The notes under the pieces are model-generated. The model made no database searches, was not told the origin of the DNA, and saw only the letters and a list, made by a program, of their open reading frames with translations. DNA of 17,398 nt from a virus. Its lineage: Duplodnaviria > Heunggongvirae > Uroviricota > Caudoviricetes. The position numbers were made by a program, and so were the translations under genes. Positions 2,597 to 7,109 of the stretch are shown here, piece after piece (position 1 is the first letter of the stretch; each line of letters opens with the position of its first letter). The DNA lies in the IMG/VR virus record IMGVR_UViG_2778261177_000007, positions 1 to 17,398 of that record; one strand, 5' to 3'.

Positions 2597-2751
2597 ACCG
2601 CCTCCCGTTTATTATTTATCTTCTCAGCCAGCCGCTGTGCTTTCAGTGGATTTCTGATAACAGAAAGGCCGGGAAATACCCAGCCTCGCTTTGTAACGGA
2701 GTAGACGAAAGTGATCGCGCCTACCCGGATATTATCGTGAGGATGCGTCAT
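2569..2751 (-). CDS. Lambda orf60a-like small protein
   Basis: ORF in the position of lambda orf60a; starting at the third codon ([15 protein letters not shown]...) gives 60 aa and the 4-nt overlap with exo seen in lambda. The ORF track's longer version starts at 2757. Confidence 0.6.
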
Positions 2752-3428
2752 CGCCATTGCTCCCCAAATACAAAACCAATTTCAGCCAGTGCCTCGTCCA
2801 TTTTTTCGATGAACTCCGGCACCATCTCGTCAAAACTCGCCATGTACTTTTCATCCCGCTCAACCACGACATAATGCAGTCCTTCACGCTTCATACGCGG
2901 GTCATAGTTGGCAAAGTACCAGGCATCTTTTCGTGTCACCCACATGCTGTACTGCACCTGGGCCATGTAAGCCGACTTTATGGCCTCGAAACCACCGAGC
3001 CGGAACTTCATGAAATCCCGGGAGGTAAACGGGCATTTCAGCTCAAGGCCATTGCCGTCACTGCATAAACCATCCGGAGAGCAGGCGGTACGCATACTTT
3101 CGTCGCGATAGATGATCGGGGATTCAATAACATTCACGCCGGAAGTGAACTCAAACAGGGTTCTGGCGTCGTTCTCGTACTGTTTTCCCCAGGCCAGTGC
3201 TTTAGCGTTAACTTCCGGAGCCACACCGGTGCAAACCTCGGCAAGCAGGGTGTGGAAGTAGGACATTTTCATGTCAGGCCACTTCTTTCCGGAGCGGGGT
3301 TTTGCTATCACGTTGTGAACTTCTGAAGCGGTGATGACGCCGAGCCGTAATTTGTGCCACGCATCATCCCCCTGTTCGACAGCTCTCACATCGATCCCGG
3401 TACGCTGCAGGATAATGTCCGGTGTCAT
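2748..3428 (-). CDS. exo: Lambda exonuclease (Red-alpha)
   Basis: 226-aa product recognised by eye as near-identical to phage lambda Exo ([37 protein letters not shown]...); 4-nt overlap with bet as in lambda. Confidence 0.95.
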
Positions 3429-4210
3429 GCTGCCACCTTCTGCTCTGCGGCTTTCTGTTTCAGGAATCCAAGAGCTTTTACTGCTTCGGCCTGTGTCAGT
3501 TCTGACGATGCACGAATGTCGCGGCGAAATATCTGGGAACAGAGTGGCAATAAGTCGTCATCCCATGTTTTATCCAGGGCGATCAGCAGAGTGTTAATCT
3601 CCTGCATGGTTTCATCGTTAACCGGAGTGATGTCGCGTTCCGGCTGGCGTTCTGCAGTGTATGCAGTATTTTCGACAATGCGCTCGGCTTCATCCTTGTC
3701 ATAGATACCAGCAAATCCGAAGGCCAGACGGGAACACTGAATCATGGCTTTATGCCGTAACATTCGTTTGGGATGCGACTGCCACGGCCCCGTGATTTCT
3801 CTGCCTTCGCGAGTTTTGAATGGTTCGCGGCGGCATTCATCCATCCATTCGGTAACGCAGATCGGATGATTACGGTCCTTGCGGTAAATCCGGCATGTAC
3901 AGGATTCATTGTCCTGCTCAAAGTCCATGCCATCAAACTGCTGGTTTTCATTGATGATGCGGGACCAGCCATCAACGCCCACCACCGGAACGATGCCGTT
4001 CTGCTTATCAGGGAAGGCGTAAATTTCTTTCGTCCACGGATTAAGGCCGTACTGGTTGGCGACGATCAACAATGCGATGAACTGCGCATCGCTGGCATCA
4101 CCTTTAAATGCCGTCTGGCGAAGAGTGGTGATCAGTTCCTGTGGGTCGACAGAATCCATGCCGACACGTTCAGCCAGCTTCCCTGCCAGCGTTGCGAGTG
4201 CTGTACTCAT
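3425..4210 (-). CDS. bet: Lambda Bet (Red-beta) single-strand annealing protein
   Basis: 261-aa product recognised as near-identical to lambda Bet ([66 protein letters not shown]...). Confidence 0.95.
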
Positions 4211-4215
4211 CCGCT

Positions 4216-4512
4216 TTATACCTCTGAATCAATATCAACGTGGTGGTGAGCAATGGTTTCAACCATGTACCGGATGTGTTCTGCCATACGCTCCTGAAAC
4301 TCAACATCGTCATCAAATGCACGAGTAATGGCTTTTTTGCTGGCCCCGTGGCGTTGCAAATGATCGATGCAGAGTGATTCAAACAGGTGCTGTGGAAGAC
4401 CTTTTTCCATGTCGTCTGCCAGTTCTGCCTCTTTCTCTTCACGGGCGATCAGCTGGTAGTGACGTGCCCAGCTCTGAGCCTCAAGACGATCCTGAATGTA
4501 ATAAGCGTTCAT
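4216..4512 (-). CDS. gam: Gam, RecBCD inhibitor (short GamS form only)
   Basis: 98-aa product matching the C-terminal 98 residues of lambda Gam ([19 protein letters not shown]...VDIDSEV). The upstream long-form N-terminal coding sequence is present but out of frame and truncated. Confidence 0.9.
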
Positions 4513-4587
4513 GGCTGAACTCCTGAAAATGGCTGTGAAAATATCGCCCGCGAAATGCCAGGCTGATTAGGAAAACAGGAAAGGGGA

Positions 4588-4878
4588 TTAGTGATTCAGG
4601 CCGTTACCGCGTCCGTCGAGAAAAACTTCCACGAGCAAATCACGGGTATAAGTGCGCTCGATGCCGCGATGCAGATATAGCCGTCCGCGTAAATTAGCTG
4701 ATGCAGTCCAGGTACCATCTTTGTGTTTGACCAGCATTCCTGGCATGACCGCACCTCGATTAACGGTCTGCGTTCCGTAATGTTGATGAACCATAAAAAC
4801 TCCTGCCCGTAAGCTGGGCTGCTGAACATATAGAGACTTCTGCGCGTATTCAGGCGGTGGATGGCCGCCGGTTGTCAT
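4588..4878 (-). CDS. Hypothetical protein, first ORF downstream of the putative pL (in the N/kil/cIII position)
   Basis: 96-aa ORF with ATG start and a GAGG about 10 nt upstream. No recognisable family and no N-like arginine-rich motif. A competing 77-aa ORF (4596..4829) in another frame lacks an SD. Confidence 0.4.
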
Positions 4879-5049
4879 AACTAAGCCGCCTCGTTGAAGC
4901 GACTAAGGTATGAAATGTTGAGTTGATTTCAGCTGGTCACACCGACGTTCACGCGTCCGTTTCACCCCTCGCACTCCCCGAAGCCTGCTGAAATTCAAAC
5001 TGCGGATCTAAGCGGTCATCGCAACGGTGAATCAGGTAGTTGCCGTATC

Positions 5050-5130
5050 GTTGTGTTGTTGCGATGAACTTATTTAAAACTATAGTTGTTTTATCGTCAA
5101 CAACAAAAGTTGTTTTATTGGTTGTTTTAG
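5050..5130 (-). promoter_or_regulatory. Putative pL promoter with oL-like operator repeats
   Basis: On the minus strand: -35 TTGACG (rc of 5095..5100), 17-bp spacer, -10 TTAAAT (rc of 5072..5077). Embedded in GTTGTTTTA / CAACAAC repeats. A roughly 30-bp module (TTGTTGA..AAAACAAC.ATAGTTTTAA) is shared with the pR side. Confidence 0.45.
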
Positions 5131-5238
5131 ATATAACTGGTTGTATTTAGGATGGATTTATTTTGTGACTTGAATCGCATAGCGATAACTGAAGCGAGGT
5201 TATGGTGGTTTTTTTAACGGTGTGTGTGATGAGGGGAG

Positions 5239-5268
5239 GGCAAAAGAAAACCCGGCACGGTGACCGGG
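5239..5268 (-). terminator. Intrinsic terminator downstream of the repressor gene (tImm-like)
   Basis: Minus-strand RNA CCCGGUCACCGUGCCGGG forms a GC-rich stem and is followed by UUUUCUUUUG. Lies about 120 nt after the repressor stop, between the repressor and the pL/oL region. Confidence 0.65.
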
Positions 5269-5389
5269 ATTCTTACGCCGTTAGGTAAAGATATTATTGC
5301 GGTGGCTTAATATTACTACCTAGAGCAAAGATAGGAATTAGTTCTTTACTGAATGAGCACAATGCCCAGTTGATAATTTTTAATTGGTA

Positions 5390-6079
5390 CTACCCATGCT
5401 TCCTATATGTCTGCGGCATGCTCCCAATAACCTTACCGAAGATGAACACCCGGTTCATCTCGTCTTTCTCGATCGGGTCCCACGGTGAGTAGCTTTTGTT
5501 ATCAGAGATGACCAGCAGCTTATCCTTCATCATTTGCAGGCGCTTTACATGGGCTGTGTCGTCGTACAGAAACGCATAGATACCATCACCGTCGAAAGAT
5601 TTAACTGTGATATCAACGAACAGCAGATCACCTGGTTCGATCGTTCCTGACATGCTGTCACCACGCACGTTAATGATGCGGATATTTTCCGCCTTCCTAC
5701 CATCGAACATGTGACGAGCATCGTCAAACGAGTACTCAACCGAGCGTAGAACTTCTACAAACTCACGGTTGATGACTCCCGGCCCAGCACTGACTTCTAT
5801 ATCAAGAACGTCAATCTTGAAGTATTTGGAATGGCTGACAGTTGATTGTATTGGTTGCACTGTACTGTCTGACATATTTCCAACGCCAGAAGATAACCAT
5901 TCTGCGCGCACACCCAAAGCGTTCGCGATCTCCACGATTTTAGTTGTTTGATTAGCTTTCCCTGTTTCGATTTTCTGAATAGCAGCCTGGCTAACCCCGA
6001 CCAAATCCCCAAGCGCCTTTTGTGTAAGGCCTCGCGCTAATCTGGCTTCTTTAAGTCTTTCTGAGAGTGTTGTTTTCAT
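5390..6079 (-). CDS. cI-like phage repressor (N-terminal XRE-type HTH, C-terminal S24 LexA-like peptidase domain)
   Basis: HTH segment LTQKALGDLVGVSQAAIQKIETGK; Ala-Gly autocleavage-type site (VSAGPG); S24 motifs (VRGDSMSGTIEPGDLLFVD, ...HVKRL). Start set at the internal ATG 6079 (MKTTLSERL...); the 251-aa ORF-track version from 6145 would begin inside the operator palindrome. Confidence 0.85.
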   Translation of the reverse strand: MKTTLSERLKEARLARGLTQKALGDLVGVSQAAIQKIETGKANQTTKIVEIANALGVRAEWLSSGVGNMSDSTVQPIQSTVSHSKYFKIDVLDIEVSAGPGVINREFVEVLRSVEYSFDDARHMFDGRKAENIRIINVRGDSMSGTIEPGDLLFVDITVKSFDGDGIYAFLYDDTAHVKRLQMMKDKLLVISDNKSYSPWDPIEKDEMNRVFIFGKVIGSMPQTYRKHG

Positions 6080-6183
6080 AGTCCAAATGTACAACCAAGG
6101 TTTTATTTCATCAAACGAAAATGGTTGTTGATTAAAAACAACCATAGTTTTAATCTTGATTCAAATTAACCACGGAGGTTGTT
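6080..6183. promoter_or_regulatory. oR-like operator region with divergent pRM/pR promoters
   Basis: Perfect 8-bp-arm palindrome ATGGTTGT-N9-ACAACCAT at 6121..6145 and a second ACAACC..GGTTTT site at about 6093..6108. Putative pR: -35 TTGATT, -10 TTTAAT, then the GGAGG SD of the cro-like gene. Confidence 0.5.
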
Positions 6184-6414
6184 ATGAACCCAGCTATCAA
6201 AACAGCGATCAATATCGTTGGTTCACAAAAGAAACTGGGCGCTGCTTGCGAAGTTTCACAGCAGGCCGTCTATAAGTGGCTTCACAACAAAGCAAAGGTA
6301 TCCCCTGAACATGTCGGCAGCATTGTTACGGCTACTGGTGGAGTAGTGAAGGCATACCAGATTCGCCCGGATCTTCCGAAGTTGTTTCCACACACCGAAA
6401 AGAACGCAGCTTAA
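6184..6414 (+). CDS. Cro-like / YdaS-family HTH regulator
   Basis: 76-aa ORF divergent from the repressor, GGAGG SD 6 nt upstream of ATG, HTH-like segment (QKKLGAACEVSQQAVYKWLH); occupies the cro position. Confidence 0.8.
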   Translation: MNPAIKTAINIVGSQKKLGAACEVSQQAVYKWLHNKAKVSPEHVGSIVTATGGVVKAYQIRPDLPKLFPHTEKNAA

Positions 6415-6426
6415 ATTTCCATTTCA

Positions 6427-6439
6427 CGCTCTTTAACAA
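6427..6439 (+). promoter_or_regulatory. boxA-like antitermination element at the nutR position
   Basis: CGCTCTTTAACAA lies 13 nt after the cro-like stop; matches the rrn/lambdoid boxA consensus (TGCTCTTTAACAA) at 12 of 13 positions. No convincing boxB hairpin follows. Confidence 0.5.
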
Positions 6440-6483
6440 TAAGCAATCAACTTAACAGTCAATTCAAACTAAAGGAGTCAATT

Positions 6484-7023
6484 ATGCAACCACTTACATA
6501 CCAACAGACTAGCGGATTTAGCCCGACTGCGGTGATAAATCGTTCTCAAACAAAACAGGCGCCAGGCCACGAAAAAATCCGTGATGCCGTTCGCGCCTGG
6601 TCGGCTGCAGATAATCAGGATGTTGTTGCCGCACTCATTGTGAATGAGTATCGGGAGCAGGGCGGCGGCACCATCGATTTCCCTGATGATGTCAGCCGTG
6701 CACGCCAGAAGCTGTTCCGCTTCCTCGATAACAAATTCGATTCTGAAAAATACCGAAATAACGTGCGTGAACTGACCCCGGCAATTCTGGCGGTACTACC
6801 GCTGGAATATCGCGGCCACCTGGTTGAGCAGGATAGCTTCATGGCTCGGCTGGCTGAAATGGAAAAGGAACTCAGTGAGGCAAAACAGGCTGTCATTCTC
6901 AACGCACCACGCCACCAGAAACTGAAGGAGATGAGTGAAGGCATTGTGTCGATGTTTCGTGTGGACCCGGATCTGGCTGGTCCACTGATGGCGATGGTCA
7001 CCACCATGCTGGGGGCAATATGA
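6484..7023 (+). CDS. YdaT-family protein (cII-position regulator)
   Basis: 179-aa ORF with AAGGAG SD; motifs NEYREQGGG and LTPAILAVLPLEYRGHLV resemble Rac-prophage YdaT-family proteins (recall); sits in the cII position after cro. Confidence 0.65.
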   Translation: MQPLTYQQTSGFSPTAVINRSQTKQAPGHEKIRDAVRAWSAADNQDVVAALIVNEYREQGGGTIDFPDDVSRARQKLFRFLDNKFDSEKYRNNVRELTPAILAVLPLEYRGHLVEQDSFMARLAEMEKELSEAKQAVILNAPRHQKLKEMSEGIVSMFRVDPDLAGPLMAMVTTMLGAI

Positions 7024-7109
7024 CAGGTTCGGAAATGGCGAAAGCCGGTCTGCGCGAACAGAACCGACTTTCAGGTGCAAATCGTAACACACTCATTGCG
7101 GGAGGAATT

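Follow-up and report, generated by a model that had tools for sequence, protein, structure and literature searches.

A near-consensus boxA directly after the cro-like gene of a lambdoid prophage with no recognizable N gene raises the question of whether this phage antiterminates its early transcripts using boxA alone. The original prediction, made from the letters of the window (the whole stretch of 17,398 nucleotides that was analysed), was that boxA without a boxB hairpin, together with the missing N gene, suggested either rrn-like antitermination from boxA only or some otherwise non-canonical mechanism. The window covers the early part of a lambdoid prophage and is organized as follows.

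Up to ~2757, minus strand: int, xis and small early-left genes
2748-4512, minus strand: exo, bet and gam
4588..4794, minus strand: kil, the first gene of the pL operon
4795..5064, minus strand: untranslated pL leader of ~270 nt, without nutL or an N gene
5048..5164, minus strand: pL promoter/operator block, with an inferred -35 TTGACG at 5100-5095
5390..6079, minus strand: cI-type repressor (HTH and S24 peptidase), likely start ATG 6079
6080-6183: pR/pRM operators, including the palindrome ATGGTTGTT-N7-AACAACCAT at 6121-6145
6184..6414, plus strand: cro analogue (YdaS family), which defines the boxA-carrying module
6484..7023, plus strand: cII analogue (YdaT family), at the ATG of which homology with sister phages of other immunity starts
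From 7020/7110 to 8737, plus strand: O and P, the O gene probably starting at ATG 7110 rather than 7020
8987 onward: cargo and insertion sequences

The AACAAC operator half-sites of the pL block match those of pR, and this block differs in the sisters of other immunity. The boxA is located between cro and ydaT, in a spacer with the following features.

6415..6483, plus strand: cro-ydaT intercistronic spacer of 69 nt, a degenerate nutR-like element that travels with the cro module
6427..6439, plus strand: boxA, CGCTCTTTAACAA
6457..6466, plus strand: AGTCAATTCA, by alignment the decayed 5' arm and loop of the hairpin of relatives (GGCTGAATTA...)
6472..6477, plus strand: AAGGAG, the Shine-Dalgarno sequence of the ydaT-type gene, 32 nt after boxA and weakly complementary to GCUCUUU

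The boxA of the E. coli rrn operons is TGCTCTTTAACAA. CGCTCTTTAACAA differs from this sequence at 1 of 13 positions (12/13 identical), and its internal segment GCTCTTTAACA (6428-6438) is an exact match to the consensus GYTCTTTAANA. As predicted, it can be classified as a near-consensus rrn-type boxA, and it is the only boxA-like sequence on either strand of the window when up to 2 mismatches are allowed. The accompanying claim that a chance 12/13 match in 17 kb is unlikely also holds: in dinucleotide-preserving shuffles (n = 200), matches with at most 1 mismatch to the rrn boxA averaged 0.04 per shuffled window, with any match at all in 8/200. With up to 2 mismatches the mean is 0.55 and 86/200 shuffles (~43%) contain a match. 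Because a match at this lower level is not unusual, the weight of the comparison rests on the near-exact match only. The position is likewise that expected of nutR. The site is on the sense strand of the pR operon just 3' of cro, 13 nt from the cro stop (6414) and 45 nt from the next ATG (6484), so that the early transcript carries the boxA (CGCTCTT(T)A) of lambda-type nut sites.

The N gene is missing from the window, as had been noted. No ORF of the pL operon matches the N-like PHROG phrog_271, the model of which does detect N in relatives, and the left-operon ORFs of near relatives were likewise checked for N-likeness with no match. PhiR34_1, a complete and viable phage, is 99% identical over the early region of the window. 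Its nin/Q/lysis genes are DLP12-like, its virion genes are lambda-like, and the annotation of its genome includes no N. The gene following the ~270-nt leader of pL is kil, not the N gene that is immediately downstream of pL in lambda-type systems. A search of both strands of the window, pL leader included, revealed no nutL and no second boxA-like element, and no combination of boxB hairpin and N gene was found elsewhere in the window.

The statement that nothing resembling boxB follows the site is correct as well. No local stem-loop was found 3' of boxA, and the minimum free energy of the 69-nt spacer is -3.6 kcal/mol (z = -0.76 against shuffles). The spacer has the composition A27 C15 G6 T21 (C/G 2.5-2.8), and because it is both G-poor and unstructured it can be considered rut-like. 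Neither an rrn-type upstream boxB nor a GU-rich downstream boxC is present in 6380-6483 (only 6 G in 69 nt). The site is not placed ahead of long untranslated RNA, as an rrn boxA would be; a translated ORF begins 45 nt 3' of it. Rfam scans of the window and five relatives gave no match in the boxA spacer, in the pL leaders or between ydaT and O. The boxA segment GCUCUUU (6428-6434) is complementary to the ydaT Shine-Dalgarno region AAGGAGU (6472-6478), and the same pairing is predicted in one relative, L139. As a signal this pairing was rejected: it is weak (-3.6 kcal/mol) and no better than in shuffled sequences.

Related prophages show what the spacer once contained. The 80 IMG/VR loci with an identical Cro are too alike to be informative. 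The closest diverged homologues (Cro 80-86% identical, loci L133-L141) and another 27 viral contigs have a 6-bp hairpin ~22 nt 3' of boxA, GGCTGA-loop-TCAGCC, with a loop that is mostly GNAA. Some of these hairpin-bearing loci precede a ydaT-type gene, as in the window, and L134-L137 precede a lambda-type cII. When the window is aligned with L133, the flanks are homologous, a 21-nt deletion removes the 3' arm together with the next ~15 nt of the relatives' sequence, and the 5' arm is substituted (GGCTGAATTA to AGTCAATTCA). As judged from these alignments, the window spacer is a decayed boxA-hairpin element in which boxA alone is intact. The window boxA is 13/13 identical to the L142/L134 type, whereas identity over the other aligned parts of the spacer is only ~55% (an estimate from the alignment). 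The positions at which boxA varies between relatives are mostly the degenerate ones of the consensus (C or T at Y, C or A at N). Together, these two patterns hint at constraint on boxA. The boxA itself is kept in homologous phages, as the original prediction had required of a meaningful site, but the boxA-only arrangement is not ancestral, the hairpin having been lost.

A more distant comparison covered 45 Cro homologue loci from other genera. In 16 of these, a boxA (up to 2 mismatches) is found 7-24 nt 3' of the cro stop codon. For several, the left operon has a counterpart that includes the same hairpin and precedes an N-like protein of phrog_271; those loci are canonical nutL/nutR/N systems. 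Among the nearer relatives, the boxA-22 nt-GGCTGA/TCAGCC element after cro (right operons of L133-L141 and L142-L168) is found with three left-leader types, including putL, and searches revealed no left-operon twin of the GGCTGA hairpin. Because of the three leader types and the lack of a left twin, this element may not be an N-specific nutR even in the relatives. Copies of the left-leader motifs were also searched for in the right operons, and none were found.

The explanation that fits these observations best, and that is given a somewhat better than even chance of being correct, is that this boxA is a genuine NusB/S10 (NusE) site inherited with the YdaS-type cro module, now an orphan, and that it would have a local effect rather than cause processive antitermination. 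It is considered an orphan because the hairpin was destroyed in the E. coli lineage and both N and nutL are absent. Most likely, it is a dispensable local modulator and not a new antitermination system.

The proposed model for the orphan boxA is as follows. In the ancestor, boxA was the 5' half of a two-part element (boxA, ~22 nt, short hairpin), which in the more distant relatives is a canonical nutR served by an N protein. When pR fires in the window phage, NusB/S10 would bind the boxA RNA as it emerges just past the cro stop, an expectation that comes from sequence identity alone, and with NusA, NusG and SuhB would tether this RNA to RNA polymerase. The 69-nt unstructured, G-poor gap could be a natural Rho entry point, the counterpart of lambda tR1/rut; it appears to be the only unstructured, G-poor untranslated stretch of the early right operon and is directly upstream of the lysogeny regulator. 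Because the site is in this gap before ydaT, boxA would be expected to act locally, on the access of Rho, on the translation of ydaT or on both. It would thereby set the amount of transcription and translation that continues from cro into the cII-like ydaT (that is, the cro:ydaT ratio), and it could do so in either of two ways: boxA may shield the RNA from Rho, as in rrn operons and CRISPR arrays, or it may damp ydaT translation and so favour Rho, as at suhB.

On its sequence features, the site appears best filed among the orphan BoxA (NusB/S10) sites upstream of ORFs. The BoxA regulatory elements described by Baniulyte et al. 2017 (PMC5725501) are defined there by the sequence GYTCTTTAANA within 50 nt of a start codon; that account describes BoxA as active when moved up to 100 nt from the Shine-Dalgarno sequence and as opposing or promoting Rho depending on context. 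The window site has the same consensus, with 45 nt between it and the ydaT start codon. It also resembles the suhB and C. koseri CKO_00699 elements of that report in having pyrimidine-rich, G-poor RNA that could double as rut, and differs from them in being located between two ORFs of a phage operon rather than in a primary 5' UTR. The genome-wide boxA screen of the same study lists GCTCTTTAACA 3 bp upstream of the cII-annotated ECS88_2541 of E. coli S88 and 31 bp upstream of hypothetical genes of UMN026 and E. fergusonii (PMC5725501 supplementary file 3). Judging from that file, these entries may belong to the same family of prophage boxA sites as that of the window.

Three other systems invite comparison. 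The window site resembles the nutR of lambda and P22 in its position (just after cro, ~270 nt into the pR transcript) and in having the same boxA, and is homologous by descent to the nutR of the distant relatives that have matching nutL and N-like proteins. It differs in that the window has no boxB hairpin, nutL or N gene; because all three are absent, it cannot work as an N-utilisation site. The rrn leader/spacer antiterminator (boxB-boxA-boxC) and the CRISPR-array boxA act without any phage protein, and the window boxA matches at 12/13 positions, including the AACAA tail. Those sites precede long untranslated RNAs, whereas that of the window precedes a translated gene by 45 nt and has no boxC. 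The window phage is N-less like HK022 and HK639, which use put, and its close relatives L133, L151, L165 and L168 carry an HK639-type putL in the position occupied in the window by a private 134-nt leader segment (discussed below); the boxA spacer itself lacks by far the length and the structure of a put site.

The case for dispensability comes from sister phages of other immunity (4A7, 4C10, Perceval and others). These share the pL leader and the ydaT-O-P-...-Q backbone with the window (92% identity over 4200-5348 and 99.8% over 6483-7100) and carry another cro module. Since homology with the window stops at precisely the ATG of ydaT, boxA is part of the cro module. The cro-ydaT spacer of the sisters is 30 nt long and contains no boxA. 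Because the sisters lack it, the backbone does not need boxA and any effect of the site is dispensable, which argues against a processive rrn-like role.

The same evidence could be taken to mean that boxA is an inert relic, left over from a lost nutR and no longer of any effect on the phage. This is a possible explanation, though a clearly less probable one than an active orphan site. It is consistent with the decay of the partner hairpin, with the sisters that do without the site and with the population data. The cro-boxA-ydaT module is present in 1507 of 5426 complete E. coli genomes (~28%) and is nearly clonal over these 1507; it is young, and its spacer is invariant in the samples examined. 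Within the lineage, where the module is nearly invariant, variable sites number 1/13 in boxA, 2/56 in the rest of the spacer and 11/77 at cro third-codon positions. This polymorphism, which has too little power to assess constraint on boxA, gives no sign of special constraint, and the retention of boxA within the lineage could reflect recency alone. Two points count against a relic. Between lineages, retention of 13/13 positions against ~55% in the rest of the spacer has a probability of ~0.0004 to 0.05 (the value varies with the choice of background identity). In addition, NusB/S10 binding is determined by sequence, and a perfect site on an abundant early transcript would be unlikely to go unbound. 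If the orphan boxA does have an effect, this effect would operate in a large share of natural strains, given the frequency of the module. The locus is a natural case of a nut site cut down to its host-factor half, and hence a convenient substrate for examining NusB/S10 loading on a translated phage operon, and Rho protection or translational damping of a lysogeny regulator.

Processive antitermination from boxA alone, in which Nus factors at boxA would make RNA polymerase termination-resistant across the pR operon and so replace N, is doubtful. Its attraction is that N, nutL and boxB are all absent and the boxA is of consensus grade, and there is precedent in that BoxA with Nus factors stops Rho termination in reporter constructs as described in PMC5725501 and in CRISPR arrays as described in PMC7665894. 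Furthermore, the boxA-hairpin element of the relatives occurs with three unrelated left-operon devices (including the HK639-type putL) and no recognizable N, and for this reason is not obviously N-specific. Several findings oppose this reading. Sisters with an identical ydaT-to-Q backbone have no boxA, and none follows cro in HK639 or HK225, two other phages with no annotated N. A consensus scan of the sense strand of PhiR34_1 revealed no strong intrinsic terminator-like site between cro and Q. The site is between translated ORFs, where ribosomes already keep Rho out, and it is accompanied by neither a GU-rich boxC-like tract nor an upstream boxB. Given these points and the hairpin remnant in the spacer, the rrn-like, boxA-only part of the original prediction is not supported.

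Still less probable is that the boxA sequence is conserved at the DNA level, as part of a YdaT operator or PRE-like promoter region, and is not an RNA signal. The YdaT protein of CP-933P protects ~95 bp between ydaS and ydaT and recognizes TTGATT-N6-AATCAA (PMC9986795). The window spacer has AATCAA/TCAATT repeats and a 3-mismatch operator match at 6433-6450 that overlaps boxA. However, 3-mismatch matches are no more than chance would give (22 found, 12.9 expected), the same boxA is found ahead of the lambda-type cII of L134-L137 as well as ahead of ydaT, and boxA variation tracks the RNA consensus. Finally, a chance match in AT-rich intergenic DNA, for which the frequency of 2-mismatch matches in shuffles might be cited, is in effect refuted by comparison with relatives. 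The sequence is exact or one position off and occupies the place of nutR, and alignment shows it to be homologous to the boxA of dozens of diverged relatives.

The broader suggestion of otherwise non-canonical antitermination in this phage family is a reasonable idea, but the elements behind it are the pL leader and the ydaT-O hairpin rather than boxA. Two further features are relevant to it.

4840-4916, minus strand: shared stable 3' hairpin module of the pL leader (-25.4 kcal/mol, z = -3.15)
7024..7109, plus strand: ydaT-O intergenic region with a conserved hairpin, core ~7040-7075

Between the shared pL/5' leader and the shared 3' hairpin is a slot that contains four unrelated inserts across the relatives. 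The first is the putL of the HK639/HK022 type (L133, L151, L165, L168). The second consists of a boxA followed by a ~165-nt conserved RNA containing UUAGACCCC; it is present in HK225 (L169 2300-2490, minus strand), shows compensatory changes in 17/30 predicted pairs from Escherichia to Gilliamella, has no Rfam match and is not followed by a recognizable N gene. Leaders that begin with the boxA TGCTTTTTAACAAC or GCTCTTTAACAA and continue into this RNA were observed in L166, L142, L087, L085, L102, L117, L134-136 and others. Some copies of the RNA end in a 22-codon ORF, MRGAKRKQIYSSPFEAEWAGLN, the end of which resembles the arginine-rich motif of lambda N (..AEKQAQWKAAN). The third insert is a boxA with a GCGAA-GAGA-TTCGC hairpin. 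No N-like ORF was found after any of these three.

The fourth insert, found in the window and its sisters, is a private 134-nt segment (4914-5048, minus strand) that is present only in this E. coli phage group and at least 95% identical within it. Its position makes this segment a candidate for an antiterminator that acts in cis. According to a put covariance model (R1, built from HK022 putL/putR, HK639 and three contigs), it is not a put site. This model recovers the putL of L133 at 103.6 bits and has no match in the leaders of the window, where the best match overall (10.2 bits, E = 2.3) is inside bet. The segment folds no better than shuffled sequences (z = -1.05 and -0.12), and no compensatory pairs were found in the pL leader among 35 variants, all at least 95% identical. 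The window's pL operon contains two terminator-like hairpins on the minus strand, one at 2076-2090 and one at 2665-2687.

The ydaT-O hairpin shows compensatory changes in 5/7 predicted pairs across 13 loci and is a homologue of an HK639 feature annotated as 'M3-like RNA'. Because it is present with or without a boxA after cro, it is more plausible than boxA as a general signal of the right operon. Together, the private pL segment and the ydaT-O hairpin are better candidates than boxA for non-canonical antitermination. A fuller version of this idea is that the prophage family runs both early operons without N by means of cis RNA elements: the private pL segment, the ydaT-O hairpin and boxA as an N-independent Nus loading site. 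This version is judged unlikely; were it true, boxA would be a working part of a protein-independent, Nus-dependent antitermination system, a hybrid of rrn and put. More generally, many lambdoid prophages around this cro family have no recognizable N and carry diverse conserved leader RNAs instead, namely put, two boxA-containing types and the window's own type.

Downstream of the early genes, the window departs from PhiR34_1. A 1302-aa inverse autotransporter (8987-12895, plus strand; intimin/invasin-like, with IAT_beta and Big_1 repeats) and an alpha/beta hydrolase (12932-13975, minus strand) take the place of the PhiR34_1 ren-ybcK segment. The same cargo is found in E. coli BCE049, where the prophage adjoins icd. 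The isrC Hfq-binding sRNA (15890-16012, minus strand), a partial IS009-like match (16018-16161, plus strand) and an IS3-family transposase (orfA/orfB; 16332-17398, plus strand) are located further downstream, and the prophage is interrupted before Q at this isrC/IS009/IS3 region. isrC (135 bits) is the sole confident Rfam match in the window, IS009 being under the gathering threshold.

Between the cargo and this region, upstream of a ninB/ybcN-like ORF (14423-14827), is a 9-bp hairpin, TCACCGGAG...CTCCGGTGA (14277-14302). It is 3' of a perfect palindrome, TTGATTATGAATAATCAA (14241-14258, plus strand), which agrees at every position with the YdaT operator described in the literature, TTGATT-N6-AATCAA. 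By analogy with lambda paQ, this palindrome could be a YdaT-controlled site in the nin region.
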